A stretch of DNA of 64,000 nt from Catajapyx aquilonaris (Eukaryota). A model generated the notes under the pieces. It was not told where the DNA came from. It saw only the letters and a program-made list of their open reading frames with translations, and made no database searches. Every line of letters starts with the position of its first letter. The first letter of the stretch is position 1. The translations under genes were made by a program, and so were the position numbers. This document shows positions 5,846 through 63,674 of this stretch, one piece after another. The stretch covers positions 1 to 64,000 of the forward strand of contig JYFJ02001033.1 of NCBI GenBank assembly GCA_000934665.2. Direction: 5' to 3'.

Positions 5846-8800
5846 ATGGACGAAGCATCCTTCATGCCTCCGCTGAAGGGACACTTCAACCGAGAAGGCA
5901 ACTTTGACGGTGACGAGGACGAGAACGAGTCGGAAGGAGAGTTTGTCTTTGAGGAGGAAGAGGAACCAGAAGCAGACGAGGAGGAAGAGGAAGAGGACGA
6001 CAACGAAGAAGGAGAAGAGGACGAGGACGAGGAAGGTGAAGAGCAGAAGCCACAATTTCCAATTACATTAGAGGAATACAGCATTGGCAATGCTCGCCTG
6101 AAGCTCCCAAGGGACTTCTGCCAAGATAGGCATATTTTCCAGAGTGTATTTAGCTACAGCACATGGAAAGAAGAGATCAGTCAGTCAGATCGTGAGCACC
6201 TCAAGGTTGGTGGAGCTGCACTTGTTCTTTAGAAATTAATCTTGGTGAACCATGAAATGCTGATGACTAAGGGCTGGATTCTTGTGGACTCCCTCTGTCA
6301 ATGTACAAGTGGTCAGACCCACTTGACTCTTACTAGACCTTTACCCCAGTACACCCAGGATGCTACAATACTGTACCACTTTCAGTACCAGAGTTGCGGC
6401 ATCATCTATGTGGAGATTAAGTGGATCTGGGCAAAGTCCATGAAAATCCACCTCTAGGTCTGCCTTAACATAGATTTCCTTGGTTACTCTGGCACCATGC
6501 TTTTTTTTAGATTTACTAACCATACTGAGTCATTTTGAAAGCCTCATCATGGTGCGAATTGATGAGTATTTTGCGTACTTTCATTGTGTGTTTGGATTTT
6601 CAGAAATTCCTTCCAAAGTTCAGCAACAGTGCTGATGTTGAGGAGACCTTGCAGTCTTTATTCAACTGGGATAACTTCAAGTTTGGAAACCAGCTCTCAG
6701 GATTGTTTGAGAACATGAGGGCAGGAAAATGCAACCCTCGGGCAGTTGTGAGGAATAGTGTTATGAAGAAAGTTCGGAAGAGGTGAAAACTGTGTTCTTT
6801 ATGTCATACATGTTACTAATTATGTTATTATTCATGATCCACTTTTGATGTGGAGAGTGGGCAACTACTATTTTTAACTTATATGATGTGACACCAAAAT
6901 CCTGTGGTATCTGACCCTACCTTCTTACACTTAATTTCGAAGGTATTGGTTTGTCATGTCTGATTTATTTACAGAGAATATCGGCGGAAATTACGTTTGC
7001 ACTACCAGAACACTTTGGCCAACCTGCTAATTTCAAGACGAAGATTGTTAACAGCTGTAGCTGGAATTCCAATGGCAAACCCTGACTTGACCTTGAACCT
7101 GACGTCTAGGAACCACCGACATCGTGCTCGTTCTTCTCGCCTCCCACCATGCAACTCTAAGTCAGATTTACAGCAGAGAGCAAGGCGGAGATATTACCGT
7201 GAGCTGTCTGCCATTCGTGAGGAACTTGGAGAGAGTTCTGACAGTTCTGAGGATGAAAATTATCCTGGTGAGTTAACCACCAGATGCTTTGTACATCTGC
7301 GAGCGAAAAGGAGGCGATTAATTCTGAAAGAATATTGGCAACATGAGTGAACAGTCAAGATTCAAGTGTACTTGCTAGGATATATGTGAGGTAGATGCTC
7401 TAAGGGTGCTGGCAGATGATTTTAGGTACTTCTCCTTTTTGTTGTCAGTACATGCACTTCCTTCCCCAGATGACAGTTGTACATTGGATTCATTTCTCTC
7501 TCTCTGGAAGCTTCTTGTGACATGAGATTTGTGGGATATTATCTGCAATAATTATTAATAAGATGACATTCTCCTATGAAATTAATTGATGCTACGTGAC
7601 AGAAATTTCCTACAACCCATCTCTAAAGGGGTGAATTTGTACCTCAAAAATTTACTGAGCTGGTTTCTGTCAATTATAACAGAAATACATACATTCAAAA
7701 TAATTTGTTGGTCTGCAACAAAAAAAAAATTATGTGGATGAATGAATTCAGGGTTTGTTATTTTGGGAGGAAGAGGTGCACCTTGACCTCATTGGTCATA
7801 GGTTACAATGCAGGTAAATTGAAAATAAGAAATGACTTTCTCATAGTTGCAAGTTAAAATCATGTTGCTGTTAGTTATATGTTACGACATCAGCAAATAA
7901 ATTGCTCATAAGTAGAATTTGTGATAGCAGTTTTACATGTGAATTAATTTACTCTGTTGCAGAGGGACCTCCATCTAAAGTGAGCAAGAAACAGCGAAAG
8001 CACCTTTCCGCTTTGGAGGCATCGCTAGAGGTGCGGAAGGTCTCATCTACCTTTGCATCTAAAGGGATGGATCTTGACTCTAACCAAGCCTCGCTCTTAA
8101 TGTTATCTGAGTTTGGAGATGATGCTTTTCGCTCTCTGCTACAACAACATCGGCTTAGGAGGATGAGCAATGAGGTAACAAATCAAGCATGGTTTTGCTA
8201 ATTTAGCATTTTATTATCATAAGTAGGTGTTACATTTTTACAGCAATGGAGACATTTTTTAAATGTTTGAAATGCTTACCATATATTTTTAAAATTCAGA
8301 CACCTCAATTGGTGCTAACGCTGTAGTCAAAACTTCATGCTAGATATCCTTTAAAAATTTGATTCAAGTACTTTGACTAATATTAACAACAAATGCCAAT
8401 GTCATTGAGCTAGTAAAAATATAAACCATATTAGGTTAAAGAATATCCATATTTTTAATCATTTTGGTGGAAATAGCAAATTTGCGAATTTTTATCCTGT
8501 GTGGAGAGCCAAAACAAAAAGTCTTGTGACATAATGATTAATTTGATGATCCATACTAATGCAGGATGTATATTTTTTTATTTAGCGTCATATAGATCTG
8601 GATGTGAATGGCCTTACCCTAGAGGATATCTGCCAGCGAACCCCTCTAGTGGTGGGCCCCAACAAGCGCGGCTCTGCTACCCAGTTCCAAGGACCATTTC
8701 TGCCACCCCCAAAACCAACCAAGCGAAAGTCTGCAACTGTTTCTGCTGTTGCTCCACCACCTCCTCTGAATTTACCACCACCACCTGCACCACTGGCACC

Positions 8801-11800
8801 ACCATTGCCACCTTTGCCTCTTCCTGTGCCCGAGCCTCAACCACAGCTCCTCCCTCCATCTGCCATCAAGCAGGAAGTGGTGAGCAGCCCACTCCCAGAG
8901 GAGCCTGAAGTTTCTAAAGCTGTTGTGCCTCCTTCACTGCCGCCTCCCTCACCTGCCAAACCTCCCCGGAAAGTGGTCAACCGCCGTAACAACAAGAAGG
9001 AGGTAGCTGCTGCCACAGAATCCCTGGCACCCCTACTCAACCAGATAAAAGTGGAGCGAATTGATGAAGATGAAGAGTGTGGATTAACCTCAATAGTTAG
9101 TGATACTGTGAAGGTGAGTTGGTGCCAGTTATGTGATTGAACTATGCGGTCTGAAAATTATCATCAAGTTCTTAAGTTTGGTTGAAAGATAATGCTGATT
9201 TGTGAGCATTGAAAGGAGTGAAAATTTCTCATGTGTTGGTTCTTGGTGGATCTGAGGAAACCTTTGCCTGGCAATGGAAGAAACATGTAACTGGTTACTA
9301 AATACTAATCAACTTAGTTGAATTACATCATTTCAGCTAAAATTTATGGGAGAGTCCATTTGTATGTTCCGTGCATCAGCATCCGACTTGTGAATATTGA
9401 GTACTATTCATAACTGTATAATAAAGCAAAATTGTCACATATTTCTTTGTGACTAGTTCAAAATAGCATTTACAACTGCTGCAATAACACAGCACTTAGG
9501 CCTCATGTGGTGCAACTAAAAATGTCCTTCCAAGTACAACCTTCTTATTTCTTGTCTTGTAGGTGCAGCCTCCTACTCCACAGTTCACACCACAGCCTGT
9601 GGTGGTTCAGAGCTATCAGACCCTCCATCACCCACTGCCACAATCCCAACAACAGCCATGGTCTGTGCCTGAACTGACCCACGATACCCACTCCTGCTTC
9701 TTCTCCTTGATCCGAGAAGTGATGGCAACCACCCCTGAGCAGCGCATGGGGGTCTTGCTCCTCTCAGAGAGCCTCCGTGCATGGCAGGATAGCCCAATCT
9801 CCCCTCTCAATGATTGGTATTCTGCAGTGCCCAGTTGGGTGGAGGCGTTGCCAGCAGCACTCAGGTTCCTCTCGGGAGATATTCCTCAGAGGTTGGCACC
9901 AGATGACTTCGTGCCCTACTTGCAGTACAAGCCAGGATCCAGGTAGGAAACCCTCTCATGCTTAATGTTACATGTACAGGTGAAAGTATGCCATTGTAGT
10001 GTGGCAAGTGGCCAGAACTGAGTGATGCTTGGAAGTATTATTTACAGAATTATTGTGCCACTGTCTAGGACTGATTCTGATATGAGAAAAAATAAGTCCC
10101 ATTTATGTGATGGAGATTTTAGCATCTGATTGAGATTAATGGCAGAATGAGCTTGTATTGTAATGGTCAAGAAGTGAAGGTTGATAGCAATGGATTGAGT
10201 ATAGAGATAGATTGTATATTGACTCTGCACTCATAACAGGAAGGACTGAATCAATTGTGGGATTGACATGGGGCCCAACGTAGGTACTGCTTAGGTTCTC
10301 TTCATGCACATGTATACAGTCCTGTACAACACATACTTCTGTTTTATGTTAAAATATTGCAATAACTGAATACCATAGAGAATTTTTGCCAGAATCCGGC
10401 CAAGATTTTACCACCTGCTTCCCAATGGTGGGGAAAGTGATAATCCAGATGTGGAAGGTCACAGGCAAATTTTAAACAGTGTTGCGCACTGACTGGTTCC
10501 ATGTGCCCACATCTTTTATTTTGGTTCAACATGACCACTTTGGGATCACATGCAGTGTAACCATTAGAAAGACAATTCAGGATCTGATGTTTCAGTTTGG
10601 ACAGTGATAATGTGATGATGGTATCACTAGGTTTTCTGATTACAGGTCATACCAGTGGATAGGTGCAGGTCGTGATACAGACACCCATCTGGCACCCTTA
10701 TGTCAGTTCTGGCTGGAGCGTCGTGATGAGCTCAGTGCTGCTCCATCCGTCCCTGCACCAGATCCAGACCCTGTGCCAGCACCTTCTGTGGTTGCACCAT
10801 TGCCTACTGCATCAACTCCTCCTGAGTCACCCCCTCCACCGAGGTGCCCGACAACATGGACTGTGCGGCCTTCAACCCCTGAAGAGCGTGCTGTTTTTCA
10901 TGAGCAAGAACGCCGTCGCTATGAATGCCCCCAGCGTGCTTTTGCCTTCAGGATGCATGGTTATGAGTCAATGGTGGCACCAGTCAAAGGCAGCCAGCCA
11001 GGTGCTGGAGCAGGCACTGCAACTGCATCAGGCAACCGCGCCCGTGGTCATCAGTTGTTAGCTGAAGGTCGACCACCGTTTGTAACTTTATTGTCACTAG
11101 TACGTGATGCAGTGGCTCGTTTGCCCAATGGCCAAGGGACACGTTCGGACATTTGCACCCTTTTGGCCGACTCGCAGTATTTGTCACCCTCAGCAACAGA
11201 TGACCAGCAGCACCTAAACACTGTAGTGTCAGGTGCTCTGGATCGATTGCATGGTGAACCTGACCCATGTGTGCGTTATGATGCTCATAGGAAGCTGTGG
11301 CTATACCTGCATAGAGGTAGGTCACTGGAGGAGTTGGAGCAGTCTCACGCTAGGGTCAGTCGGACAGTAGCTGTTGCAAGAGCCAACAAGAAGGCAGCGC
11401 AGCAGGCTGTTGTTGCAGCCGCAGCCGCAGCACAAGCAGGAACCTCATCACCTGTCAGTGTCAGTGGTGTTACTGCAACAATAGGATCTCCTGTAACACC
11501 CTCTGGGACACCTCCTCTTTCAGGTTTGTTGCCTTTTGTGTTGTCTGTGGAAGTCAGTTGTGTGTGCCAAAAGTTCAGAGCCAAATATTGGCATGTGGTG
11601 CTTTTCTTTGTATGATTAGTGCAGCTTAACTATAACATGGGATGAAGCTGGGTGTGTTCTAAATTTTCATGCAAATGAGGCTATAAATTTTAGCCATGGT
11701 ATCAATCACAGCTGGAACCTTTTTCTTTGGCTATGTCAGTGTTATTGTTGCATGATTTTTGGTCCAGAAAACCAGTTTTGTTCTCTTCTGGCAGCACTTT

Positions 11801-13822
11801 ACATAGTGCCTGTAGCAGTGCCTCATTGAACTTTGCGTGCCTTTGAGAACATTGTAGAGTCAAAATTTAGTTCTCAGAGAAATATCATTCATTTTCTGCT
11901 TGTTTTTCTAGTGAGTGCTGCCATCCAGACAGTTCGTAAAACTACACCTCGCCCTCGAGTTAGACAAGAAATGAAAGCAGCGGCTGTGTCACCACTGCTT
12001 CAGTCCGAAATAGTTCCTTCCTCTCCTGTCATACACACCAATTCCCCAACCATTGCTGTTACTCCTCCACCTGTCACGACTGTTGCCATGACACCCCCTC
12101 TCCCACCACAGCAACCTTCCCCAATTCCAGTCACTGTAAGTGTTGCAATGCCATCTCCACCCCAGCCTCAAATCACAGCATCACCAATTGTGACCATGTC
12201 ACCTGTGCTGACCCAAGCTGCAATATCAACTGTTGCTGCTGCAGGCTATCGAACTGTCACCATATCGACATCTGCTGGCATGAAGACAATTCAGCTAGCA
12301 CCTTCTGTAGCAGCACTCAAGCCACAACCCGCCTCTCCTCAGCAGGTGAAGCTGCTGCCAGCTAAGAAGCTGGTGGTCTCCACAGCTAGGTTGGCTGGTA
12401 CAGGCACTGTTACTAGGCTTGTGGCCCCCTCTTCATCACCTGGGGGCAAGCCAGTAATGGCCAAAGTGGTGAGCACTGTTGCGTCTGCCACTGGACTGAC
12501 ACCATCACCTCCCCACCAACAAGTGGTCACAATGGAAAGTCTCCTTAGTGCGGGCAATGTGACAGTGCAGCAGCAAAGGCCAATATTGCAGCAGGCCATT
12601 TACCAAAATGCACTAAGGGTATCAGCTGGAGGGAAAGTACTCCAGATTGGGGGTGTTGCTGGTGCAGCTGGTGGGGCAGGTCCGCATCAGTTGGCATTGG
12701 TGTCTGGTGGGACAGCCCAGGCAGGGCAGGGCGGATTACATGTGAGTGTAATGGCCAAGTAGTGGCAGACGTTTAGAATTGGTTCTGCCCTTTGAATTGG
12801 TGCAGGATTATTTTAAAAATTTAATTTAATTTAATAGTTTTTAATAACCTGAACTCAGAATTATTGGTCAAAGCACTGGTGACAGTTGCATTGCAAAATG
12901 ACTAATGAATTCCTTGTTAATGTAATGTTTTAGGTTCAACTTGGTCCACGAGTAGTGATGGCTTCGCAGAATGCTAGAGCAAATGCTCCCCTCAGGCTGG
13001 CATCGGGGTCAATGCCAACCCTGAGTGTGGCACAACTGGGGGGTCGGCCTGTGCTTCTGGCCTCCACCCGTGGACCAGCTCCTGGACAAGCTGCTGGACT
13101 GAGTGTGGCCCCAGGTGGGTCCCCAACAACAGCGACAGTGAGGACAGCAAGTCTCGGGACAACAGCTGGTGGGACACTAGTCTTGCACTCTCCTGGGGGA
13201 GGACCCCCACAAATTATTCTGCCCTCCAACCTCCAAGGAGGAATTCCACTCAAGGCACTACAGGGGTTGAAAGTAATTCCTGTGGCACAGCATAAAGGTG
13301 AGGGATTCCAGAATTATAAGTACAGTGAATTTATACACTTATGTTTAGGGAACCTACAATTTAGCATTGTAATTTCTTATAGTATACCCATTAGAATAAC
13401 ATTACATTAGCATGCTCAAAAGTGTGTCATCTAGTGAACAGCTGTGAAATCTTATTCCACCAAGGGGATTAACATTATTAACTAATTGCCTCAGACCATT
13501 GCAAATAGGCCAGTTTGTGGCAGCATCTGGGACAATTCATGATTCACATCACTACATATGATTCAAATGCATGGTGCCACTAAAATATTCTAGATGCATT
13601 CATTGTTGTTAATATGGGTTTCCAGGAAAGCAGCAAGTCTTTGCCCGCATAATAGGGTCACCATCTGCGACGTCTTCCACATCAACTTCTCCGGTGATGT
13701 CAGGTGCGCCATCAAATGTGCAGGGTATGACAGTGCTCTTGGCTGGAAGCAATGCCAATGCCACCAATGCTGCTTTTGGGGCATCACAACCAGCTGCCCC
13801 TAGAGAAGGACAGCAACAGTAG
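5846..13822 (+). CDS. NFRKB: Nuclear factor related to kappa-B-binding protein (INO80 complex subunit G), 10 coding exons, about 1406 aa
   Basis: Exons 5846-6205, 6604-6782, 6975-7267, 7963-8174, 8586-9113, 9563-9942, 10646-11523, 11912-12741, 12934-13297 and 13626-13822, all GT-AG and phase-consistent (4221 nt). DEUBAD-like region (FSYSTWKE..DREHLKKFLPKF..FKFGN), winged-helix region (CFFSLIRE..WQDSPISPLNDW..YQWIGAGRD), conserved FVTLLSLVRDAVARLPNGQGTRSDIC..VSGALDRLH..DPCVRYD..KLWLYLHR, and a low-complexity C-terminus. Confidence 0.93.
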
Positions 13823-15599: not shown

Positions 15600-18500
15600 C
15601 TAAAGTGAGTTGGTGGCAAGACTACAAGTTTGGCAACACATTTGCCTAAAAGGAGAGATGCTGCAGTATCTCCGGAGCTCTCGTAATCTACAGAAACGAG
15701 ATAGGTCCTTATGATCCGTGTGAGGGCTCTGACAATTTGAAAGTTTTTTGCCATCTAAGGTTGCACAGTTTCGCCATTCTTCAGGCTCAGGTTGACAATG
15801 GAAAGGCCTTCCTCTTCCGAGGGGTCTGCACCTCTTCAGGAGTCTTTGTTGCCTCTCTTCATTGCCCTCAATTCTCCTTCCACATTTCTGTAAAGAAATG
15901 AGAACATAACTAAAATTAAGACTTTATGGGAAATTCTAAGTAATAAACAGCCATCAACTGCATTCACAAAATGAGGCTTTCTAAAATTCAAAGTTGCAGT
16001 TGAAGGAATGATTTTTACATTATGATACAATGTACAAAAAATGATATTTGAAGCCTTCAAACTGTTCAAAGTGTGCATAAAACTGTATCTGTTAATATGA
16101 TGACAATGAGCTATACAGTATGCATCATCAGTAAATTAGAATTTTTGAAAGATAAGCCTGGCAGTGGGCAAGTTATGAGTGCCAGAATATTGCAACCTTC
16201 TCCCAACCAACAGTGATCCAACGTCCAGGACATGGCTCCTGGTTGCACTTCCTGATCTGTACTGGCTTTGTATCTTGACACTGCTGAGGATCCAGTGCAT
16301 ACTTGATGAGGGAGCTGTCGTTTACAGGAATGTCCAAAAGAAGTGTTGGAAGACAGTACAGCTGCCTCCTTTGCTTCCCCCTGTTCCCACATGTTGCACT
16401 GCAGCCCTCCCATGGTCCAGCAGCCCACTGGAAATGGCAGCTGAAGTCGTTGCACGATCTCTGCGTGACTTGAGGTTTCTGGTCCAGTGGACACTTGCGC
16501 CTTGAAGTTGGATGTCCAGTAGAGCGATGCCTGCAGGACAAGAGAAGCCTCTGGTGGCCCCGTCCACAAGGAACTGAACATGATGACCATCCTATAACCT
16601 GCCACCCAAATTCTGACAATTGGCCATCATCATTGTACCAGTCAGCAGGAAGGGAATAGTTGATCCGCGTCACATATCGGTGTCCTGTTTCCAAAGGATA
16701 TGCCTGCAAAACACATCCAGTGTATAAATTCCACGGTGACAACACAATATTTGCTGATATTTAGTCGACATCAGTTTGAAAGCTACTTTTTTCCTCATGA
16801 GCCATACCAGTAAGATGACTTCTTCGAGAAGTGGTCCTTTAGCCCACACAGTCTCCCCTCCATTGATGACATCATAATGGAATCGAGTACCTGCTCCGAC
16901 CTCACGTCTTGACAACAAAGCCACCGATGCTGGGAGGATCCAGTGGCGTGACTGGCGTCCACGCAAGGATATCACACCTCCTCGGATGCGTCCGATATTT
17001 GTTGGGATTTCTTCAATCAGGATAGACCTTGCTCCTCTTGGAATTACTCCAAGTCGACGTGGTTCTGGAAAGATAATTTATTGCTCACGTGAGAGCTGAT
17101 CTATGATACACATTCGTAATTTGTGCATTCCATGCTTACCGTCCTGCAGCATGCGTCGATATGTGACGGAATGGTCTTTGCAAGTGGTCCCTTTTCCACT
17201 ACACACCCCACAGCGGTCCTCTCTGACACGCGACCCAAGGACACCATCGCAACCTACAGGTCGGCACACACCTTGTATGCATACATCCCTGGAGGAGTCA
17301 TATGAACAGGGAGTACCATCAATGACCACATCTCGTTCACCACCCATGAAGACTTCATCTGTCTCATCTGTCTTGCATAACAGTCGACACTGCAAACTAT
17401 CTGCAATGAATAAATGCCATTTGCAGCGTAGGTGTGTTGGGTAAATCCTTTTGAGGAAGGACTTTTAATTATGGTTGAGGATAAGAGTCTGTCCTGTATA
17501 TACTGTACCTTGGTCAGTCTGATGAGGCCTCCATGTCAAATTGCCCTGCTTATGGTCTAGCTCTACCAGCTGGGCCAGCCTGGCACACTGTTGCGCCCGA
17601 AAGTCAGCAATTATAGGACACTGTTTCAGATTGCACAGCTCCCATTCCTCCGGACTTCCTGGGCAATTGTTACCGCCAAAAGCAGGGGCCGGATTGTTGC
17701 AGGTGCGAGACCTGAACCTGGCGCCAACACCGCAGGATCGAGAGCATGGTCCCCAGGAGTGCCAGGAGCTCCACTGGCCATGGCGTGGATTGTGCCTCAG
17801 AGGTCCTCTGGGTCGAGCAGTGGTTAGTGTGACCGACGTGGCCTGAGACGACGAGATGCGAGGTACCCGTACGCAGGCACCGTCAGCGCAATGCTTGCCA
17901 TTCCCGCACGGAGTACCCTCCAAAGGCGGTCCTCTCTTAGTCCGACACACCCCTGGGGAGTCCGTACCAGAGCACCACAGCTGCTGGCAGGGGTCGGAGG
18001 TCACCTGCACGGCGGTGCACACCCCGTAACCATCTCCGAATTCGAGGCGGCACTGTTGGTCCAGAGTGTACGTAACCTGGGAAGAGGAAGCCAGCGTCGA
18101 GGCATCTCCTGGAACATCCCGAAGACATGTCCATTTGGCGCTCTTGGCCCGGAACTCCTTGGCCGAGCAAGTTGACCACAAAAAGCGGGTGAAGGTGGCG
18201 GCTACCAGAGGAGCCATCACACTTCCTTTGGAGGCCTCCCGGTCGCATCTGTTTCCAGCCCGATAGTCCCCGTCGTGAGTCATTCCTAACCTGCATATCA
18301 GAGGTTGATATGGTCATTTGGCCTCTCTAACCGGGACATGTCACATGATTTTATAATTATTCTAGCAATAGAGTGAACCTCTTAGCACTAGAAGATAGAT
18401 CTTGCGAATGCCACTACGGCGAACCTGTGACAAATAGTGGGAAATGTGATGTCCACAATGATATTTGGTTGTACTTACATGTGTCCCAACTCGTGAGCTA

Positions 18501-19930
18501 GTATGAACGCAGAGGACAGTCCTTCATCCTGATTGAGAGAGCAGGACCTCTTAGGATCGCACATTCCGGCCACAGGGGCGTATCCGGAAGGCCCACCAAG
18601 ATCGAGTCTGGTGAGCCAAATGGCAGCGTCATGCAGCTGGGCACCGGGATCCTTGGCCAGATTCGCCAAGACGTCGTTGTTCCAGGAATTTACGCCCTCT
18701 AGGGAACGTCTGGGGCTTCCAGGAAACACTCGTCCTCCGCCTAGTTCATCAAAGAAGGTGACCCGAAGCAACCCCAGCTTCAGGTCGGCGCCCAGTGACG
18801 GGTCCTCGAAAATTGCACTGACGATGTTCAACAGAGTCAGCACGTAGTCTTGGACGTGGGACTTGCCGTGGAAGTTGACCACTGACCCGTCCACTCCTAC
18901 GGCCAGGAGTAGCCAGAGCGATTGCGGAACACTGTTGCTGTTGATGGTGCTAGGGTCGGCCCAGTACGCTTCCATCAAGTCAGACACGTTCTCGCTCGGA
19001 CCTAACTCACCACCGGAAGCTGTGTCCGGTTCCCAAACCGGGTCTGCAACATATCCTTCCCACTGCTCCTTGGAGAAGTTCAGGAAGCTGTCGTAGTTAC
19101 CAGATTCCAGCTCACTGAAGGAACACCCGGTCAAAAAATGCAGGAAAATATGCACTGGCTGATGGTATACATTTATCAAAATTGTTATGTTTTTGTACAT
19201 ACCTAAAAAGGGTTGGTTCCGACAATGCGTCATGGCCACTTCCAGCAGCAAGGTCGTCTTCTGGGAACACCTGATCCTGACGCAGTTGGAACCGCTGCCT
19301 GTGAGCCGCAGCCACACGCAGCACGTGCGGTTCTCCACTATTCCAAGATGTGTAATTGTCGGTGACTAACGGGGAGAGGATGAAATCAGCTTCTGTGGTG
19401 CGGACAAGGCCGCTGAGTCCTTCACAAGCACTCAGCGCTACCAGTGACCCCGACTGAGAGCGGATCCGACCTCGAAGGAAGCATTCGGGAGGTGAAGGCG
19501 GAGGTGACGATGAACTGTCGTCTTGCCATACCACGGTTGGTATAGTGTCGAAAGAAGGCTTGAGTTCCAGATGCAGCTTCCGTCCTGCCAGCGGAAGAAT
19601 GATGTGTACCTCGTCTTCAGCTGTCTCCCGTCGACGTCGACTATTCATCCTCACCTCTCTTGAGACGACTTGTCCTCTCCTGTCCGCAAGGAGCGGATAC
19701 ACAATGTCGAAGTCTTGGGCATCCTCCACACCATCTAGCATTTCTAAAGTCCCCTGTTGATCATCAGTCGACTTTTTGCTTTCTTATACGCATCATGCTA
19801 AACGATTTGGTGACACTTGACACATGTTAGGATTAGTCGCTTCATATGCACTGCGCGTCTGCGCCTCACTTACCTGGCATAATGCTGTAGCTCCGGTCAG
19901 AGTCAGAAAGAGTAGCACTACGTGTAGCAT
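15600..19930 (-). CDS. ADAMTS-family secreted metalloprotease (signal, prodomain, reprolysin, disintegrin-like, TSP1, Cys-rich, spacer, TSP1 repeats, PLAC), 8 exons, about 1112 aa
   Basis: Exons 19874-19930, 19203-19753, 18479-19114, 17509-18290, 17140-17400, 16808-17064, 16197-16703 and 15600-15887, phase-consistent (3339 nt). Signal [18 protein letters not shown]; zinc motif HELGHMLGMTHD split by an intron; Met-turn SVMAP; TSP1 [38 protein letters not shown]-terminal [20 protein letters not shown] (PLAC-like). Confidence 0.93.
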
Positions 19931-30900: not shown

Positions 30901-32673
30901 CATATTTTCCGCTATGTACGATATACAGTACAGTTTACCTTATAGTAACATTCACTATTTGTAGTTGGTTACACGACTACGGACGTGATCTACATGTGGA
31001 ACAGTGCAAGAAGGGTCAATATTGCATCCGATATGAAAATGTCACAGTTCGATCTCATATCAACACCTTCTGCCAATCAAACCGATGTCTATCCAACCGG
31101 TGAGTCGCCACATATTTTATTTCCTCAAGCCGAAAATTCCTCAGGATCTTCAGACCACAGTCAACTAATTTTGACGGAGTTGGGGGAGAATTACAGGACC
31201 TGTGTGATTGATCCAAGAGATCTACATTGAGGATGAAGCCTTGTCCTTTGTAGGCGAATCTGAAAGGGGGGCGAACCTTTGGAACTCAATTCTCCACGAT
31301 AATCCAATTACTATGGGGGGGGGGTAGTTCTCATAGTCTAACTATACTGAGTGCGTTTCAAGTTAATCAGCTTGGATTGGGGGATTGGACAATATTCGTG
31401 CATGGTGTCTAATAATGTGCTGCTGATTTTTGATTAGGAGACAGGAGCGTGTTGGTGGTGTCATTCCATCTTCGACGTCACACTGGCTACTTTCTTCTTC
31501 AAGTGTACTTCCCATGCGTTTTGCTGAACGTGCTGAGTTGGGTGGCATTTTGGATCAATCGAGAAGCGACGGCGGATAGAGTTGCTTTGGGTGAGTTTTC
31601 CTTAATCCTATCATCTCAAAATTGCAGCCCGCAGCGATATACCGTAACTTGTACACTCGATAATCAGCCCACTAATTATTATAGCTGCGCATCCTGATCG
31701 AACCTACTTAATATATAGGGCAGCAAGTCCAAGATTGAACCGGAAGCTGCGACAATAACTTAGGCTACTAACGAATCAGACAAAGTGAATTTTAGACTGA
31801 ATCATTATGAAACACCCGGTACTTTGCTTTTACGATTGGTTATAATAGTAACATCAACTTTATTTGTAGGAGTGACCACCGTCCTGACCATGACATTTCT
31901 CGGGATGGAAGCCCGGATGGACCTGCCGAAAGTGCCGTACCCGACGGCGCTGGACTTCTTCGTGTTCATGTGCTTCGGGTTCATCTTCGCCTCCATCATT
32001 CAGGTGGGGTGGATGACCCACTGGCACAAGACGAGGGGCAGTCACACCATCACGGACCTGCGCTCCGTACAATTTCAGTTTGCTCTGGTGCACTACTTCA
32101 CCAAGTACGGCTCCGGGGAGGTCTACTTTTATAGCTCCGATGAGGACGACCCTGACCAAGAGGACCAAGAATCCTGTGATTCGGTATTTATATTTTTATG
32201 TGTCATATTGATTGGACAAACTTGTGTTGGCACATAAAAGCTCAATTTCAAAAGTCTATTGTTCAGTACTGTGCCCAATGTTCTATTATCTATCACGCTA
32301 CGTGCCTCTTGTATATAGCTCGGTTCTGTAAGCAATTGAGTCTGAATGCAAAGAGTGAGATGTAATCTTTCGACAGCAGAACGTGGCCTTCGTGATGGAT
32401 GAAGGGAAGGTGTCTCCTCCACTTCCGCCTCCTCCACCCCCGCCCAAGAGATGGCCCCGAAGCCAACCCCTCAACACTCGTAGAGGAAAGTACCTGAAGA
32501 GGGTCACCTGCAGGAATCCTTCTCCGACCTTTGACCATTCCAATTCCAGCGGACACCGTAGATTTAATTCAGTTTCCAAAATAGATCGCCTCTCCAGATT
32601 CCTTTTCCCTCTTGCTTTCCTAGTAATCAACATTTTTTACTGGTTGTCGTACCTGACCAAGGACAAGCTGTGA
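27946..32673 (+). CDS. Grd: GABA-receptor-family Cys-loop ligand-gated ion channel subunit, Grd-like, 10 exons, about 452 aa
   Basis: Exons 27946-28001, 29298-29404, 29809-29876, 30504-30724, 30808-30890, 30965-31099, 31438-31590, 31870-32003, 32079-32183 and 32377-32673 (1359 nt). Signal [62 protein letters not shown]; Cys-loop [16 protein letters not shown]2 [26 protein letters not shown]4 [15 protein letters not shown]. These match the Grd subtype as I recall it. Confidence 0.9.
29602..29764. mobile_element. Small decayed mariner-type MITE in Grd intron 2
   Basis: Terminal inverted repeat CAGGGTGTTGCGTA ... TACGTAACACCCTG|TA. The left TA is not preserved. Confidence 0.5.
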
Positions 32674-47458: not shown

Positions 47459-50954
<3,496 letters not shown>

Positions 50955-53479: not shown

Positions 53480-54571
53480 ATGTCAGGCATTGCCGTGGCA
53501 CGACTTGCGGAGGAGAGGAAGGCCTGGAGGAAGGACCATCCTTTTGTAAGGTGTTTTTGTACCTGGTCTATGTAGGTAACCCCGTTAGCAACTAGCATTA
53601 ATAGTAACTTATCCTTCACAGGGTTTCGTGGCCCGTCCAACAAAGAACCCTGATGGTACTCTGAACCTGATGAACTGGGAGTGTGCTATCCCAGGGAAAA
53701 AGTCGGTAAGTGTTGCATCTGGAAAGGCATGGCCACATCACATGAGGGGTTGTTGAAACCATTTCAGTTAAAAGAGGGGTGGGTCAAGTTCAGTATAATT
53801 GAGGGATTTGTTGCCCATACAAGGACACGGAACGTGGTTCACAGACTGAGCTTTTTAAAAGTCTGGCAAAATATCTCTCGACACATTTTGTTGAAAAACA
53901 TTCAAATTTCACCAACTGAATTTGTATTTGTATGCAAAAGATATTTTTCACAGTTATTTGTTTCTTTCCACCTTGCAGACAGCCTGGGAAGGAGGGCTGT
54001 ATAAGCTGCGCATGATCTTCAAGGATGATTATCCATCCACTCCTCCCAAGTGCAAGTTTGAGCCCCCCTTGTTCCATCCGAATGTGTACCCATCTGGAAC
54101 GGTGTGCTTGTCCCTACTGGATGAGGAGAAGGACTGGAGACCAGCTATCACCATAAAGCAGATCTTGCTGGGCATCCAGGATCTGCTGAACGAACCCAAC
54201 GTCAAGGACCCAGCTCAGGCTGAGGCCTATACCATCTACTGGTATGTACTGTACCAACTGTGTTGTAATGTGCTTGGAATGGTGGAACTTTAGTGACTCT
54301 AGTTATTAGTCATCCTAGACGACCCCGAGTGACCAAAGAATGGGAAACTATTGGGAAAGTCAGTCACTTTCATAGTTTTATCCATCTACGTACCTTCACA
54401 TTGCCCTCACATTTGTATGGAGAGAGCATTACATATGTGAACAAATAAGCAACTGACATGCCATAACACCTTTCTTAATGATTAATGGTTTTCTCCCACA
54501 GCCAAAACCGTGTGGAATATGACAAGAGAGTGCGTGCTCAGGCCAAGGCGATGGCTTCGCCAGACCAGTAA
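53480..54571 (+). CDS. Ubc9: SUMO-conjugating enzyme Ubc9 (UBE2I/lesswright), 4 exons, 160 aa
   Basis: Exons 53480-53545, 53622-53705, 53979-54241 and 54502-54571. [82 protein letters not shown] at 54811. Confidence 0.98.
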
Positions 54572-55262: not shown

Positions 55263-56014
55263 ACGATATACAGGACAGTTTGAAATAGCATTAGAAATTA
55301 CTAATTCCCGATTTTTTGGAAAAAGTGCTACCAATTTCCTCAAATACACACCAGTTCAAATCTCCCACATTCACCTAGCTCGGGTGACCTTGGACCCCCA
55401 AAAAATATTCCTCCTGCGGCGGGCTTGCTCCCCACCCTTTATGGCTTGTTCACCTTGTGCCTACGAAATTGCTCCCCTTCTGAAAATTTTTCTGCCTACG
55501 TGCCTGTACAGGACATCATAGAGGGTGAAAATGTCCTAATTATACACTACAGATTCACTCTCTTTAGCTGTCAGAGGTTGGTGACGGAGGCGAGACACGG
55601 GCCAGTTATGGCGCCCAGGTGGACTTTGTGTGGTGACACATCCTGAGAGTGGCAGTAGAGTGCAGAGAGGGAGCCCATGTGCCAACTGGTAATGGCATAT
55701 TGTACTACATCCGAGTGGGGGACAGGCCAGGCAGTGTTGCCAATTTTGGGCTTTGCTCAATGGTGCATATTTTTGTAGTCATTTACAATGGTATACCTTA
55801 TGGCTTATAACATCACGTTTTCAATGAATGCATTGTGTCTGAGCTAAAACAGTTTTGAAGACTGTAGTCTTTATACCCACTCTCATGAATGTGTAGGTTT
55901 TGCTTGTCTTCAAGGAAGTACGAGTCACAATTTGCATATTCCAAATGCCTATTTATTTAAAAATAAACTTTTATCGTAGTGTTTACTTCATGGAACACTG
56001 TATAATTATCTTGA

Positions 56015-59000
56015 TCATTCGTAGCTAACAGTGTGCCAGAAACTCCAGATGTGGTCATTGCAATCCTGTCAAATGATATGAAGTAATATGCATTGATAAG
56101 TACGTTGTTCGTATTTCTAAATTCAATGTGAGAACTTACTGTTTTATATGCTCCGAAGAGGCAGAAGCTCATCCCTTCTATGTAGCTACAGTACTCATCT
56201 TCCAATTTTGATTTTGGGGCTGCAAAGGGCAATGATATAGTTAAGCATATGTACAGTACTGTTTATGAGATGTGGCCTACTGACTTTATGGTTCAATTAT
56301 TGCAATTATGCTTCAGCTCATGCTACATAATCCATGTAATGCTATCGCACATGGTTTTATGTTTGAACAAAAAGAAAGAAACCATATTTAGAGGATGATT
56401 TATTGAATTGTGCATTCTTCCAAATTATTTGGAATGGCTTGCACAGCTTGTAACAATTTGCTGTTTTTCGTAGATGGTATGTTGTACAGGGCTGGTAGTA
56501 GTTTTGCTGATGTGAGTATCATGTTGAGATGTTTCCCTTCAACATTGACACCATCTGTATCTCAGAAATATATTATGTGGCAAGGTGAATAATTGAAGCC
56601 ATTTTGGAAAATAGGGCACGTGTCAGGAGGAAATGGAATGGAGAAAATTGAGAAAAACGTACAACTTGGTAAATGACAAGTGCCCTTTATGCCGATAACA
56701 TGCAACCCGACGCACGTGACATGTGCCCTTGTTACAAGACAGCCTAATCTTCAAACCCCATTTTCAGCTGTGACAAATGTTCCTTTTGTTGTACACTTTT
56801 CTCAGGACCTCAGAAACAATCCCCCCTGCCATTTAGTGATAATAACTCGAATATTACAAAAGAGTGACATGTGCCCTTTTTGCCAAAAGGGCTTCAATTT
56901 TGTGGGATAAGGAGGAGAAGTTAACACACAAATTCAGCAAAAATATTGGCTCTATTTGCCATCATTGGGCAGAGTTCTTGTGTACTCTGTCATGATCTAT
57001 ATACTGTACATAAATGAGTTTGTTTGTGGCTTCACTATACAGGGTGTTTCCGAGCTATCTTTACAAACTGCTAGGGCGTGTAGGGGAGGCAGAGATGATC
57101 AGATTTGACCAATGCACCCCTGGTCAGAAAAGCCATCTAGAGGGGGTTCATAGACAAGGAACATGTCACGCGGGAGGTGCTAGGTGAGCGGACTGTGTTG
57201 TTGATCGATGGCCCGCAGTTGTTGCCAGGTTATGGAGTATCACGTTGTTGTAAGTCAACAACGACGCGATATGCCATAACTTGGCAACTACAGAACCGCT
57301 GTTTACTATCTGCTCGTCTCCTAGGGGATGGACTTGCTAGATGGGTCTGTTGTTACCAGGTTATGGCACATCGCGTCGTCGTTTACTATCCGAGTGCCAT
57401 CTATCAACAAAACAGTTAGCTCGCCTAGCGGCTCCAGTGCAGCATGACATGTCGGAGCGCACCCGTTCCTTGTCTTTGAACCACCTCTAGATGGCGTTTC
57501 CGACCGCAGGTGGATTGGTCAAAACTGATCGTCTCTGCCTCCCCTACACACCCTAGCAGTTTGTAAAGATAGCCCGGAAACACCCTGTATAAATCCAACG
57601 GAATGTCCCTACACTGCGGTCACTGCCTTAAACTAGCTCATCGGAGGTTACTTTTTCCAGGAATTTAATGCCGCATATTTCAGCTTTCGAAAATGAGCCT
57701 AACTCCCACAATATGCATATTCCCGAATCCTCTCACTACTGGGGCCTCAACAATATCCAACTTAACAATATCAAAAATTTCTATTTTTCCAAGTTCGCAT
57801 TCCCATGGAAATGCCCTTATGCAACAATACCTGGCAAATTAAACCATCAGGCCAGGCATCAGGCGTTTTGCATTTGCATCGATGTCTCGCGCCTCTCTTT
57901 TTTACACATCCTATCACCGTAAATTCAAGGCAAACCAAGGCAATATAGCCACCTCACGTGAGTTCGTATGGTGTGGTCATTCCGGAATTTTGTGAGATAT
58001 TTTGAAGTAGACTTCCAGACACAAATCAATCTGGACATACAACATTACTCACAGTGTTGAAAACTAACTTTCCCACCCAGCATCTGTGTATACATTTCTA
58101 AAGTTCTTCAGGGCAAACATATGGAACGAGGTGGGTGTGGAAGGTGGGGTGAAGGGGGGGGGGGTGAAGGGGGTCAAGAATTCTGGGGGAAAAACACATG
58201 TCTGTGCTCTGTGCAGTCTTTTCCTGGGCCAACTATCCGCATTCCTCTTTTTACAATCAGCATGTCTGTGTTGACTACACTATAACCGAAGCAGGTAATC
58301 TATCACAGATATTGACAAACGTTGGCTAATTGTAACTTGTAAGGCCTGTTTTAAGGGATATCGAGTTTCGAGTGTATGGAAAGCAAATTTTACACACTGA
58401 CAAACTTCATGATATATATGTATCCGGCCACAAGATACTTTCTTTAGCCTATAATTGCTCATCCGGAATTGAGCATCACACTACCTATATGGAATCTTCC
58501 AAGAAAGATGTTCAATCCCAAGACTGAATCATTTTTGAAGTACTGGTAATGTGTTAGATTTCATTCAACCTGTCCCAAGAAACTTTGTATGTTTCTCTAC
58601 AAAGCAGCACGCATTGTGAGTGTATGTTTTAGTCTAGGTTTTTATAGTGTTGAAACGGTATTTCTTTCCTAGTAACTCTATCTATTTAATGATGCACTGC
58701 ATCACGTATAGAACCTGCAATGTGATACTGACCGTTGCTCTGGTGGCACTCATTGATTAGGCGTGGTAAAATGGAATTTTCTGGCAAAGACGATGACACT
58801 TTTTCAGTGTCAAGTTTGCCATCCTCATCCAACTGAAATATTTAAAAAGTATGGTGAATCTGTGAGTTTATTCGCTAGCATATAGTAGCATATCTGGTTC
58901 TTACCCATTGTGCTCTTCCAAAGGTGCACTCTGCTGGACACTGAGAAAAAATTCATCATATATGTTACATCAATCAATGCACAATATTATTGGGTTATTG

Positions 59001-59776
59001 CACAATCTCTCCCCATATTTATACAGACCATCGTGCATTGCTCCAGATGATCTCGATTCACCATTGAAAAGTCAGGTCGTGGTCCCCTGCAATATTCCTT
59101 TTCGGAAGTTCATGCCTGGAAGATTCCAATCACTATTACTATGCCACCTTTTCTTTGGGACCATCTGGCCAACTCACCAACTCGAACGCCTCTCGAACGC
59201 ATAGTCCTAAGGCATTAGCAAGTTTACACAGATCTTTCTTTCCAACTTGAGCTTCAGCTATATAAAATCGTTATGTAATTATATCATGTTTTCTTCGCCT
59301 ATATCTGAGCCTTCTTTGTCTTGTTCAAAGAGTATTGGAACAGGATTCATTTTACCTGTTTGGAGACATTCTGATCCAATTTCCTTTAAGTCATCTTGTG
59401 AGTTTGGAAATTCATCTTCAGGAAAGAAGAACTTTTGTAGCATGTCGAGATTTGGCGTGCCATCTTCCTCTACCTGAACAGCGTTAGCATTTCATGTAAT
59501 TACGCACATTGCATTGCATAACTCGAAACAGCAACCACCAGAAAATTACTTACCCATCCAGATTTTTCAGCAACACAAGCCAAAGGACACTGGAATAACA
59601 CATGAAATATCATCCTTAATTTTTCTAGGTTTTAATTACAAACTTACTGCAAAGCATTCTGAATGTGCAAACTTGAGTCGAGTGCCGCCTTCCCCAAGGT
59701 TACATTGCTCCTCACACTGGATGTTCGCGATTGCGGCGAACAAAATTATCGAAAAGAAAATGCATGTATGCAGCAT
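56015..59776 (-). CDS. Secreted Cys-rich protein with two tandem odorant-binding-protein-like domains, 9 exons, 232 aa
   Basis: Exons 59648-59776, 59554-59589, 59356-59473, 59178-59257, 59029-59097, 58905-58940, 58733-58832, 56140-56219 and 56015-56065 are GT-AG, phase-consistent and stop-free. Signal MLHTCIFFSIILFAAIANIQC. Each unit has Cx3C (CPLAC/CPAEC), a DG..[ND] loop, EC and Cx8C. AATAAA on the minus strand at 55952-55957. The exon 5 splice sites are weak. Confidence 0.8.
57040..57587. mobile_element. Tc1/mariner-type MITE, 548 bp, TA duplication, nearly fully palindromic
   Basis: TA|CAGGGTGTTTCCGAGCTATCTTTACAAACTGCTAGGG ... CCCTAGCAGTTTGTAAAGATAGCCCGGAAACACCCTG|TA. Imperfect complementarity continues most of the way to the centre. 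Confidence 0.9.
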
Positions 59777-62044
59777 ATTTGTAACGACCACAATATGCAC
59801 TTCACTATTGATGTAGTCAGGATTACAACTGGCTATATATATGAATAGGTCCTGCACTGTATCTTGTGGCATTTGGTATCGAAGTTACGTGCCTGCTTCC
59901 TGCAGTGTTGATAATCGGCGATGCAATGAAAACTGCAGGATGACGATATCCGGATTTTTCGTGTGTGTGACATTCAATGACTTTCAAACCCAGTTAATAC
60001 GTAATGGGGGTAGCTCAGCTAATTCAATCGCATCTCCTTCCCACACCGCACGTCGACGTCCTCAATACAATTTCTTTTTTAGCTCATGTAACAGCTTACT
60101 CATGTTCTACTTTGTTTCTCGGGAACACAATATATTGCTGTGTATGGCGTAGCCCTATACAGTAACGGTTACAAAATTTCTCACTGCGCAACACATACAC
60201 GCAAAATCCTATGTTCCTCTAGTATAGTCTAGTGACATACCATGGCGTATGTAAAGTATAGAGGTCACAAAGAACGATTTACTCGTATGACCCATTTTAG
60301 TCCGTCACCTCCGAACTGGATCAGACAATCAGGAAGGATTCCCTCACCTTGGGTACGTCATGGTAGGCGATCCAGAATAAAAGGATTCTCATGTGTCAAC
60401 TGGATGCAACTGGTGTCATATTATATTGTGTCTCACAAGTCAATTGTTGCGTGAGAAACATGCGAGGCATCCGCAGATATTTTCTCTACGTGCTATAACA
60501 AGACACTATAGGAAACGGGGTTTTGGATTTCTTCAAGAACACATTGAAATATTTCTAGCTCAAAATAAGTGGTGTACTGTACCTGGTCGGTTTGCAGTAA
60601 GGGTGCAGTATGTATGTCCTCTTATCCCGCTGATCACGTGAGAGAGGGCCGCCGCGCCGTCGAGGTACTGTACTCTGTATAATTATTTTGGTGATGCATA
60701 GATTCAATAAGGCCATGTATACTCTACAGGCCAACAGCTAATAGAAAACTATTAGAGTCGACGAAAGATTTTGTTTCAAATAGTGTAGAGCCTGCCCTAC
60801 TTCTTTCATCCTGTGCTCCTACTTTTGTCTAATAATGTGTACGGTATTCGGTAGCCTATACCTGTTTTGCCATAACGGTTTTACTAGATATGTGAGGACG
60901 AACAGACATTCAAGAGGAAAGATCTTATTATATGAACTGTATATATACGAACTGTACGAAAATTATTCTCAAGAATAAACTGCAGTTTTTTGATACCCAA
61001 GTCATGTGGAAAGTCCTGGCTTATTGTAAGCCACGTGTTGTAAGCACAGCCATTTCGTTCACTCAGACAAACTGTAGAGCTCAGTTTTCTGTGTAAAAAT
61101 GAACTTATATGCGGTATAGTTCCCTTGAAAATATCAAGTTGCTGGCTTTACAGGCCATAAAAATAATATGAAATGAATTAACATAATTGGAAACGCTTGC
61201 AGAAGAGAACATAACATATTAAAAGCTGGGTTGGTGGTGGGGGGGCTTGCATTAGTTTAATTGCAAATGTGCGCCGTCAGCAGCATAGGACTCGTTCACA
61301 GGGTATGTGCATTTGTTGGAAGCCTTGCGATATTAGGTCGCAGATTTCCGCTCTGGTTTCTTCCTTGAAAGGTGAAACAGTGACTTAACCAGCATTTGTT
61401 TGACTGGCCTTTCGCTGACAGGATTATCCAAAACCTGCTCGTCCCTTTGAAGCCTATAAAATAGGCCTGCCATACTCGTATCCAAATCCCGTAAGCCGTA
61501 TATCAACACAACATGCACGAACAGGTGACATTTTTCGCTCCATTTTGGTCTATCGTACTCGTGGAAATGTGCAGTAAGTAGAATTTCGTGCACCTGGAAA
61601 ATAGTGAAGTGCCAAATAATTTGAGTTTACTACCCAATAGTAGGTTTCCTTCATAATGAGAAACTACGCAATTTTTGGTACATTCGAGCTTTTGGATATT
61701 CGCGCCATGATTGATGCCTGTACAAACATGGCTGCCTTTCACTGCAAGCCATCTGGTGTTAATGCTAAATCCATGTCTCGGTTGCTAGGTTGTAGGTTCA
61801 TGAAACTAAAGAAAACATGGCGATTGACTGAAGAACGTTCGATGGAGATCCGGAGAGTTGGATCCGGATTTCCTTCACTTGACCAGCACTGCTGATGCTA
61901 TAGGGTGAATTTAAGATAGGTCTAGGCCACGCGTAGTTCAGGCCGGTCCAGGCTAACATGCGTAGCAAGCTTGTCTGGTGACATGACCGAATTCACGTGG
62001 GGAAATGTTGTTGACCCATATAATTCCATTCACAGGTGGGGATA

Positions 62045-63674
62045 ATGGCCTTGCCGTTCAAGTACTTCAGGACAGCCCGCCTGGCTCTTATCTTCCTCTG
62101 CTTGGGCCTGCTCGTCCTCGCCTGGAACGTTCACGAGCTATGGTCTCTGCACAGCCAGGAGTTGAATTATCCGTGCCACTTGCATCCAGCTCAGGGCACG
62201 GAGGGCACGGAGAAGAAACTCACGTATGCTGTGCATGGGAAGAATGTCAGTATTATGTCCATTGTGTGTGGGTTGACAATAAGTGTTGAATATGTTGCTT
62301 TCCTGGATCAGACTAGGCAAGGGTTAGGTTGTGGAATTTGTGCTACACTGGTTCTCCATGATTAATGGAGTCAAACTGCCTATTCTCTCCAGGATTACAT
62401 GCCCTCAAAAATACGTTATCTTCTTTGGATAGCATGACATTAGTAGGGAGTAGATAGAGGTTTAAAGTGTATGAAATTGTATTTATCCATAAATTGTGGC
62501 TAGCCAGTGAAAACAGGTGACCATTGCTATAGTAAGACTTGCTGTTGTTGATGCATTTGGCCCAGAGAAATGGGCTGTCACAGAAATGGTGAATTCCAAT
62601 ATTGCAGAAACTTATTATGCGTACGGTACTTTAAAAAAATTATTTTTGTACATACCACAGATTTTTATGCTACTAACATTCTATTACCTTTCCAGGTTGA
62701 CTCTGGTTACTTGAAGCATGTGCACTTAGTCATAGGCAATTTGGGCTTTGAACGTCAGCCACTGGAAACTCCTGGGTGGGATCTTCTCTGGTCCCATGAT
62801 TATCCATTCAAGACCCTGAAAAGTAAAATGCTCAACCTAGAGCCTCATCAGAAGGTGAACCATTTTCCTGGATCAGGTTACATCACCAACAAGAGGACTC
62901 TGGCACTTTCTAATCACTCATTCGTCCCAAAATCCTTCAGAATTCCGGAAGACAAGATTGCATACTTGGATTATGTAAGCATGTTATTTTGTCTTTGAAT
63001 CTGCTTTGTCACTTAAATTATTGAGAGAGTTTCAATTGGGCTTTGTGAGTACTATATCACTCAAAAAGATGAGACAATTTTGCATTAATTATTATTTACC
63101 AATTATTCTGTGAAATGTGTCTGCTGCACATATATTGCAAATTGAACTTTTTATAAGGGCCATTGGTGATTTTACCTAATGATGCACTAAGCAAGTTTTA
63201 TTAATTGTGTCATTGCAGGTTAAAAAGGATCCAAATGCTACTTTTGTCCAAAAAAATGGGAGCCACCGAGGTGTCCAGTTTCTTTTTCCTGGCCAACCCC
63301 TCCCAGACACACAGGAAGTATATTTTGTGCAGGAGTATGTGAATAACCCCTATCTAATAGATGGGCACAAGTTTGACATTGGGGTGTATGTCATTGTGAC
63401 TTCAATCCAGCCCCTAAGGGTGTATGCATACTATGGCGATATATTGCTCAGGTAAATTTTTCCATTTTATGAAGTGAAATGCCTTTGTAAAAGGATTTTT
63501 TGTTCTGCAATAGGTTTTGTCCTCACAAGTATCATCCATTTGACCCAGCAGACAAGGACAAATATGTTGTAGGTGATGACTACCTACCTCCCTGGCAGGT
63601 GCCATCCATCAAGAGGTACATGGATAGTGGATACAATGCGAAAAGTGCCATTACTGGGTACCTCTGGCATGAAG
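62045..63674 (+). CDS. TTLL15: TTL-family ATP-grasp protein (tubulin polyglutamylase TTLL15-like) with N-terminal signal anchor; 3'-partial
   Basis: Exons 62045-62245, 62696-62974, 63219-63451 and 63514-63674, phase-consistent; TACTAAC branch point at 62671. Motifs WDLLWSHDYPF, QKVNHFPGSGYITNK, FVQK..HRGV, FVQEYVNNPYLIDGHKFDIGVYV and LLRFC. The gene continues beyond the window. Confidence 0.85.

Follow-up and report, generated by a model that had tools for sequence, protein, structure and literature searches.

The window analyzed here consists of the first 64,000 nucleotides (nt), forward strand, of contig JYFJ02001033.1 from the Catajapyx aquilonaris assembly GCA_000934665.2. On its minus strand, between positions 59776 and 56015, lies a gene whose predicted product carries two units that resemble insect odorant-binding proteins (OBPs) in their cysteine signature and share one reading frame, with a single predicted signal peptide ahead of them. 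A preliminary description had proposed such a gene, hidden in nine exons and encoding a stop-free protein of 232 amino acids. This was confirmed by a coordinate-based rebuild, in which the nine exons joined to 699 nt, equal to 232 codons and a stop codon, with no internal stops and with GT..AG borders at all eight introns.

Structure of the nine-exon gene

The first four exons encode unit 1. Exon 1 (59776-59648, 129 nt) holds the start codon, the predicted signal peptide (approximately residues 1-17) and the N-terminal part of the unit with C21, C25 and C41. Exon 2 (59589-59554, 36 nt) encodes C-P-x2-C ... W, which supplies C2-X3-C3 in OBP numbering; exon 3 (59473-59356, 118 nt, ending in phase 1) encodes an E-E-D-G loop, two predicted helices and C4 (C91); and exon 4 (59257-59178, 80 nt) encodes C5-X8-C6 (C105 and C114). 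Unit 2 begins in exon 5 (59097-59029, 69 nt), which corresponds to the portion of exon 1 that encodes mature protein, with C124 and C142. It continues through exon 6 (58940-58905, 36 nt), again with C-P-x2-C ... W as C2-X3-C3, exon 7 (58832-58733, 100 nt, ending in phase 1), with a D-E-D-G loop and C4 (C185), and exon 8 (56219-56140, 80 nt), with C5-X8-C6 (C200 and C209). Exon 9 (56065-56015, 51 nt) adds a 16-residue C-terminal tail with C218, followed by the stop codon.

Seven of the eight introns measure 58-98 nt, and intron 7, at 2513 nt, is the sole one longer than 98 nt. The guanine-plus-cytosine (GC) content was 0.44 in the exons, as compared with 0.26-0.39 in six of the eight introns. 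Retention of any one of introns 1-7 would introduce an in-frame stop within 3-25 codons, and reading through exons 6-7 in frame encountered two stop codons. A TATA-like hexamer (59836-59841, minus strand) starts 65 nt before the ATG, and an AATAAA signal (55952-55957, minus strand) starts 57 nt past the stop codon, each as a pattern match only. The predicted ATG has the base A at -3, and the sole other upstream in-frame ATG sits 5' of the TATA-like hexamer. By codon-usage likelihood, the true frame ranked first of six, at -6.1 bits against -19.8 for the runner-up, as scored with a small and compositionally biased training set made of the exons of two neighboring genes in the window (NFRKB and ADAMTS types, described below).

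Internal duplication of a four-exon module

Exons 1-4 and exons 5-8 represent one four-exon module repeated. The intron phases 0,0,1,0 occur twice in the gene, after exons 1-4 and again after exons 5-8, and the entry phases are 0,0,0,1 for both exon sets. Exons 2 and 6 are both 36 nt in length and exons 4 and 8 are both 80 nt, while exons 3 and 7 measure 118 and 100 nt. The two 36-nt exons share the pattern AG/TGYCC..TGY..(18 nt)..TGG/GTAAG (slashes mark the exon borders); this pattern, which was derived from the two copies themselves, had exactly two occurrences on the two 64-kb strands and was absent from all of 100 shuffles.

The predicted proteins of the two halves were then compared. The local BLOSUM62 alignment of unit 1 with unit 2 scored 68, a value reached in none of 2000 full shuffles (z = 8.2). 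When the cysteines were kept fixed, the same score was reached in 1 of 2000 shuffles (z = 5.7), and thus the likeness of the units is not due to their cysteines alone. Across the two halves, 25 of 88 aligned residues are identical (28%) and seven cysteines are aligned; the alignment of exon 3 with exon 7 contains nine invariant columns. The earlier proposal that a four-exon block had been duplicated with matching phases is therefore upheld by the repeated 0,0,1,0 series, the alignment score and the pattern of the 36-nt exons.

Little nucleotide similarity remains between the copies. Identity of paired exons was 18/36 and 25/80, and at third codon positions it was 6/12 and 4/26. By this measure the duplication is old, with third codon positions saturated. 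Since the open frame, the intron phases, the splice sites and the seven cysteines were nevertheless kept, selection appears to have acted on both halves. This contrast indicates that both halves have long been maintained as coding sequence under selection, and it is the strongest argument internal to the sequence. Collectively, these data support well the conclusion that the locus is an intact gene with an internal duplication, which we regard as highly probable. No paralogue of the units was found elsewhere inside the 64-kb window, where the best match outside the locus had an E value of 0.75.

Splicing of exon 5

Exon 5 has the poorest acceptor in the gene (9 of 20 pyrimidines versus 10-14 elsewhere), and of the eight donors its GTCTGT departs most from the consensus. 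An open frame requires the acceptor at 59097; a better-looking acceptor at 59086 breaks the frame. Skipping of exon 5 preserves the frame and would yield a protein of 209 amino acids. One cysteine of exon 5 lies three codons before the exon end, as in exon 1, and the cysteine upstream of it is aligned with C25 of unit 1. Among 3600 AG..GT phase-0 stretches of 60-81 nt in 128 kb, 20 were open and contained both exon 5-type cysteines. The 237-nt interval that separates exon 4 from exon 6 holds three AG..GT candidates, of which one is open and has both; under this criterion, which was chosen post hoc, approximately 0.017 would be expected there. The introns flanking exon 5 are 80 and 88 nt, within the 58-98 nt class of the gene. 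Exon 5 starts at approximately the position that corresponds to the start of mature unit 1, and unit 2 has neither a start codon nor a signal peptide of its own; together these features suggest a tandem duplication followed by fusion.

Predicted protein and its cysteines

The N-terminus is hydrophobic over approximately residues 1-17, with 12-residue hydropathy windows of 2.1-3.0 (maximum, 2.96) over residues 1-21, and the sequence A-I-A (A-x-A) precedes the predicted cut. These two features, in a call made by a hydropathy heuristic, bear out the signal peptide of the preliminary description. There are no hydrophobic segments beyond the N-terminal one. The mature protein would comprise approximately 215 residues in two homologous domains of approximately 100 residues each, and it is acidic, with 39 D/E against 19 K/R.

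The protein contains 17 cysteines, of which one falls in the signal peptide. The 16 mature cysteines consist of seven aligned pairs and one unique cysteine per half (C21 and C218). Unit 1 has cysteines at residues 21, 25, 41, 44, 48, 91, 105 and 114, with successive spacings of 3, 15, 2, 3, 42, 13 and 8, and unit 2 has cysteines at residues 124, 142, 145, 149, 185, 200, 209 and 218, with successive spacings of 17, 2, 3, 35, 14, 8 and 8. Each half thus has eight cysteines and not seven, as had been stated before. A conserved cysteine lies three residues before C2 in each unit, giving C-x2-C-P-x2-C. Exon 9 had been likened to a truncated third repeat. This candidate was rejected, as the exon encodes merely a 16-residue tail with a single cysteine, which brings the mature count to the even number of 16, and no further unit-like sequence was found in the window.

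Resemblance to odorant-binding proteins

In each half, C-X3-C and C-X8-C follow one another as they do in insect OBPs. With C25 taken as C1, unit 1 reads C1-X18-C2-X3-C3-X42-C4-X13-C5-X8-C6; with C124 as C1, unit 2 reads C1-X20-C2-X3-C3-X35-C4-X14-C5-X8-C6. Both units satisfy a relaxed six-cysteine motif (C1-X15-39, X3, C3-X20-47, C4-X7-15, X8), as compared with 28 of 20000 and 31 of 20000 composition-preserving shuffles. Assignment to the OBPs is made mainly by the six-cysteine pattern, and members of the family can fall below 10% identity (PMC4145409).

Structure prediction was limited to contiguous exon pieces, and fragments of one or two helices cannot identify a fold. In the AlphaFold2 model of the exon 3 piece, helices were predicted at model residues 9-16 and 25-39 (protein residues 64-71 and 80-94), with a mean predicted local distance difference test (pLDDT) score of 71.2; C4 lies in the second of these helices, near its end. 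The exon 4 read-through was modeled as one helix at model residues 11-31 (protein residues 101-121) carrying both C5 and C6, with a mean pLDDT of 69.5 and core blocks at 82-86. No strands were predicted in either piece. In solved OBPs, C4 likewise lies near a helix end, and C5 and C6 share one long helix. The best explanation of the cysteine pattern and of the helices predicted for the fragments is that the two units are OBP-like.

Other cysteine-based classes were considered and rejected. A Plus-C OBP was ruled out because C6 is followed not by proline but by V in unit 1 and by L in unit 2; there is also no cysteine between C4 and C5. A Minus-C type of OBP-like protein was ruled out because C2 and C5 are kept in both units. 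The motif C1-X6-C2-X18-C3-X2-C4 of the chemosensory proteins (CSP/OS-D) is absent from the observed spacings. The D/E-E-D-G segments were also examined as EF-hand loops, and this was ruled out: position 1 would be W, and position 12 would be K or D in place of a chelating E.

Several results weigh against the OBP-like assignment or against the gene model under it. Both units fail both strict published motifs, namely the classic motif C1-X22-32-C2-X3-C3-X30-47-C4-X8-10-C5-X8-C6 (PMC7414794) and the motif C1-X20-35-C2-X3-C3-X20-30-C4-X8-12-C5-X8-C6 given for Glossina (PMC4174292). The failure is due mainly to the C4-C5 interval, which is 13 and 14 residues where 8-12 are published, and also to the C3-C4 interval of 42 and 35 residues versus 20-30 in the Glossina motif. 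Only some seven residues precede C1 in unit 1, so that, of the helices of a classic OBP, the first would be short or absent. The fragment models are of moderate confidence (pLDDT of approximately 70) and do not put the fold to the test. The codon-usage score does not set the gene apart from random stop-free sets (z = 1.06; 724 of 5000 reach the score).

Homology searches gave further results of this kind. They were made with single exons or exon-pair profiles and had very little power. Six single-exon peptides (23-43 amino acids) compared with Pfam at E <= 10 matched no family (0/6). Sequence searches of the PDB with exon 3, exon 7 and an exon 4/8 profile gave no matches, and an exon 3/7 profile gave five chance matches there (E values of 0.5-1.5), none of them an OBP. 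When exon 3 was searched against 5.8 billion clusters, one candidate was returned and none at E <= 10, and the exon 3/7 profile matched three entries in a library of 1.84 billion proteins, all of them tandem-repeat proteins (Pfam TPR or irrelevant).

A search of the ESM Atlas with exon 3 gave as its best result a DUF4869 cluster with a score of 0.85 and a recognition value of 1785, which is below the informative level. Six metagenome loci were rejected as chance matches, because the match was confined to residues 43-62 of the read-through query and these residues are intron-coded. A search of Rfam over the window gave no matches, and no papers were found when the literature was searched for four peptide motifs taken from the protein. 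Consistent with the preliminary description, then, C-X3-C and C-X8-C stand in OBP order and with OBP-like spacings in both halves. Its broader claim of a divergent two-unit OBP-like protein held with respect to the duplication, the spacings and the relaxed motif, but not with respect to the strict motifs.

Intron 7 and the remainder of the window

Intron 7 contains a foldback insertion resembling a miniature inverted-repeat transposable element (57036-57591). This element is non-coding and accounts for 556 of the 2513 nt of the intron. Its arms (57036-57162 and 57465-57591) are terminal inverted repeats of 127 nt that are 91% complementary and lie 302 nt apart, and between them is a 34-nt direct repeat (57218-57251 and 57349-57382) with 79% identity. 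A C-rich low-complexity tract, in which runs of C are broken by TTCA, occupies positions 58130-58205 (minus strand) of the same intron.

Two other genes in the window were informative about the host. An NFRKB-type gene with several long open exons lies at 5774-13410 (plus strand); its matches carry PF14465 and PF25793, and its best database identity was 58% (Odonata). An ADAMTS-type metalloprotease gene with Reprolysin and TSP1_ADAMTS domains lies at 16111-19783 (minus strand); its best full-coverage matches, at 46-52%, were from insects and crustaceans, with the best identity (52%) in Odonata. For these genes, krill, decapods, copepods and Daphnia scored a few points below Odonata, and there was no chelicerate among the better matches. 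These matches place the host among the pancrustaceans, and the best identities of 58% for NFRKB and 52% for ADAMTS show that it has no close annotated relative. The protein database contained no entry from this genome itself. Single-gene trees of NFRKB and ADAMTS left the placement of the host unsettled, with the window sequence on a long branch.

The exon at 53895-54293 (plus strand; PF00179, E = 8.5e-34) encodes part of a ubiquitin-conjugating enzyme that resembles UBC9; it is on the opposite strand to the OBP-like gene, whose 3' end is approximately 1.7 kb away. An exon encoding a transmembrane region of a Cys-loop (neurotransmitter-gated) channel lies at 31764-32237 (plus strand; PF02932, E = 7.5e-11). 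An open stretch at 62552-62998 (plus strand), with an apparent resemblance to a tubulin-tyrosine-ligase-like protein, had no Pfam match at E <= 0.001. A (GTT)n microsatellite that turns into (ATT)n was present at approximately 48350-48410 (plus strand), where one of the listed open reading frames (ORFs) has a poly-Leu run. A single N occurs at position 5080.

Alternative explanations

The reading that we favor, with a probability somewhat above even, is that the gene encodes a secreted, acidic, disulfide-rich, two-domain protein in which each domain is OBP-like in its cysteine signature and helical character, and which would act as a two-pocket carrier. The duplicated gene could also be real and yet belong to another, perhaps undescribed, family of secreted, cysteine-rich helical proteins, in which the X3 and X8 spacings would be convergent or coincidental. 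The failure of the strict motifs would fit such a family, as would the eight cysteines per domain, the conserved cysteine three residues before C2 and the very short N-terminus; nor did the exon searches link anything to PBP_GOBP or to a solved OBP, or find relatives for the exon queries. Those single-exon searches, however, had very little power, and OBPs are known with less than 10% identity, the cysteine pattern being the main criterion of the field (PMC4145409). Six of the eight cysteines fit the OBP order and spacing in both diverged halves (28 and 31 of 20000 shuffles), C4, C5 and C6 lie on predicted helices as they would in an OBP, and the protein is acidic and predicted to be secreted, while the CSP motif and the Plus-C proline after C6 are both absent. 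On balance, membership of another family seems unlikely, although it is the most serious of the alternatives.

Two further alternatives concern the gene itself. The transcript could differ from the nine-exon model, with exon 5 skipped or spurious (giving 209 amino acids and a second half without C1) or with intron 4 or intron 8 retained. The weak splice sites of exon 5 (9/20 pyrimidines at the acceptor, and the donor GTCTGT), the survival of the frame upon its skipping, the unusually high GC content of intron 4 (0.45), whose retention would yield unit 1 alone, and the lack of an in-frame stop in intron 8 all speak for a different transcript. We nevertheless consider it improbable, given that exon 5 is open and contains both expected cysteines (approximately 0.017 such stretches expected, by a post hoc criterion), that the introns on either side of it (80 and 88 nt) fall within the size class of the gene, that unit 2 lacks its own start codon and signal peptide, and that eight cysteines in each half are obtained solely with the nine-exon form. 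That there is no functional gene, but a decaying relic or a model overfitted to chance open stretches, is very improbable. Although identity between the halves has dropped to 28%, with third codon positions saturated, the frame is still open, and the 16 splice sites, the exon sizes, the phases and seven aligned cysteines have been kept; the duplication is far beyond chance; and a signal peptide, a TATA-like box and a poly(A) signal each stand where expected. Against these observations stand the exon queries for which no homologue was found and the codon-usage test, which was not significant.

A bolder reading, to which we give little credence, takes one of two forms. If the host is a non-hexapod pancrustacean, the locus would hold a classic-type OBP signature, with C2 and C5 retained, outside the hexapods. 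Alternatively, the units would be two copies of a carrier domain that has eight cysteines and has not been described before, with disulfides between the domains stapling the copies together. The conserved C-x2-C-P-x2-C segment and the unique C21 and C218 may be the marks of such a domain. The placement of the host matters here because OBPs have been reported as absent outside the hexapods and confined to this group (PMC5850775, PMC4145409).

Proposed origin and significance

Under the two-domain OBP-like reading, a single-domain gene of four exons would have been duplicated in tandem, after which both copies were fused. The second copy would have lost its start codon and the part encoding the signal peptide, so that exon 5 now starts at approximately the point where mature unit 1 starts. 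The halves would then have diverged almost to saturation while keeping their exon sizes, phases and seven cysteines. By analogy with the OBP family, each domain would form a small helical bundle locked by the bridges C1-C3, C2-C5 and C4-C6, with a fourth bridge that would use the extra cysteine three residues before C2. Each bundle would enclose a pocket for a small hydrophobic ligand, and the protein would serve as a two-pocket soluble carrier in the sensillar lymph, the hemolymph or a reproductive or eggshell fluid.

If confirmed, the gene would show that duplication and fusion gave rise to a two-domain OBP independently once more, in a pancrustacean lineage without a close annotated relative. 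The ancestral four-exon structure kept in both halves would be a clean record of the fusion, and the units would add a non-standard, eight-cysteine form of the OBP domain. Since double-domain OBPs have been amply described already, the wider importance would be moderate unless the host is not a hexapod, in which case the origin of classic OBPs would move back before the hexapods. ORF-based views miss genes built from exons of 36 to 129 nt, and surveys of chemosensory genes in non-model arthropods may count too few of them.

Comparison with known two-domain and atypical OBPs

The literature confirms the existence of dimer or double-domain OBPs (PMC4174292, PMC3892079, PMC3428353), as the preliminary description had assumed. 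The dimer OBPs of Diptera, such as Drosophila Obp83cd and Obp83ef and Glossina GmmOBP3 and GmmOBP7, have approximately 240 amino acids and a single signal peptide, GmmOBP7 being 240 amino acids long with a signal peptide at residues 1-19 (PMC4174292). The present protein resembles them in its one signal peptide and two six-cysteine units, in being a single chain of similar size (232 amino acids) and in having C2 and C5 in both units. It differs from them in its eight cysteines per unit, in a C4-C5 interval of 13 and 14 residues versus 8-12, in the very short N-terminus before C1 and in a host that is not a fly; the likeness was drawn from their published description (PMC4174292).

In Nasonia vitripennis, the two domains of double-domain OBPs share "the same gene structure ... 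except for the signal peptides," and such proteins, which arose independently in wasps, flies and mosquitoes, have been called convergent (PMC3428353). NvitOBP38-46 and 48 thus resemble the present gene in having the same exon-intron structure in both domains, which points to tandem duplication and fusion. In the Nasonia proteins, however, canonical cysteines have been lost from one domain, which is of the Minus-C type, whereas all six are kept in each half here, and the Nasonia genes form part of a large OBP cluster, whereas no paralogue was found within the 64-kb window (PMC3428353). Duplication of domain-coding exons also produced the Minus-C "tetramer" DponObp4 of Dendroctonus ponderosae, in which, as here, short introns (approximately 60 bp in that gene) separate most repeats and one intron is long; there, each domain is encoded by one exon and is of the Minus-C type, in contrast to the four exons per domain and the retained C2 and C5 of the present gene (PMC6720082).

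Plus-C OBPs share with the present units the possession of more than six cysteines per domain. Their additional features are C4a, C6a and a proline after C6, whereas here the extra cysteine precedes C2 and V or L follows C6 (PMC7414794). The OBP-like proteins described from chelicerates and myriapods are of low copy number, are weakly recognized by sequence (E values of 1e-3 to 1e-5) and were confirmed by fold modeling (PMC5381604). The present protein is likewise divergent and, by prediction, secreted; as described in that source, the chelicerate and myriapod proteins lack C2 and C5 and have a single domain, in contrast to the C2-X3-C3, C5-X8-C6 and two domains found here (PMC5381604).

The atypical or two-domain OBPs of mosquitoes, such as AaegOBP45, are also two-domain, secreted proteins, secretion being a prediction in the present case; they form a lineage-specific family and were likened to the present protein by description (PMC3892079). 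Non-olfactory roles in the ovary and eggshell and in the hemolymph have been proposed for them, and these roles are worth considering for the present protein as well (PMC3892079).

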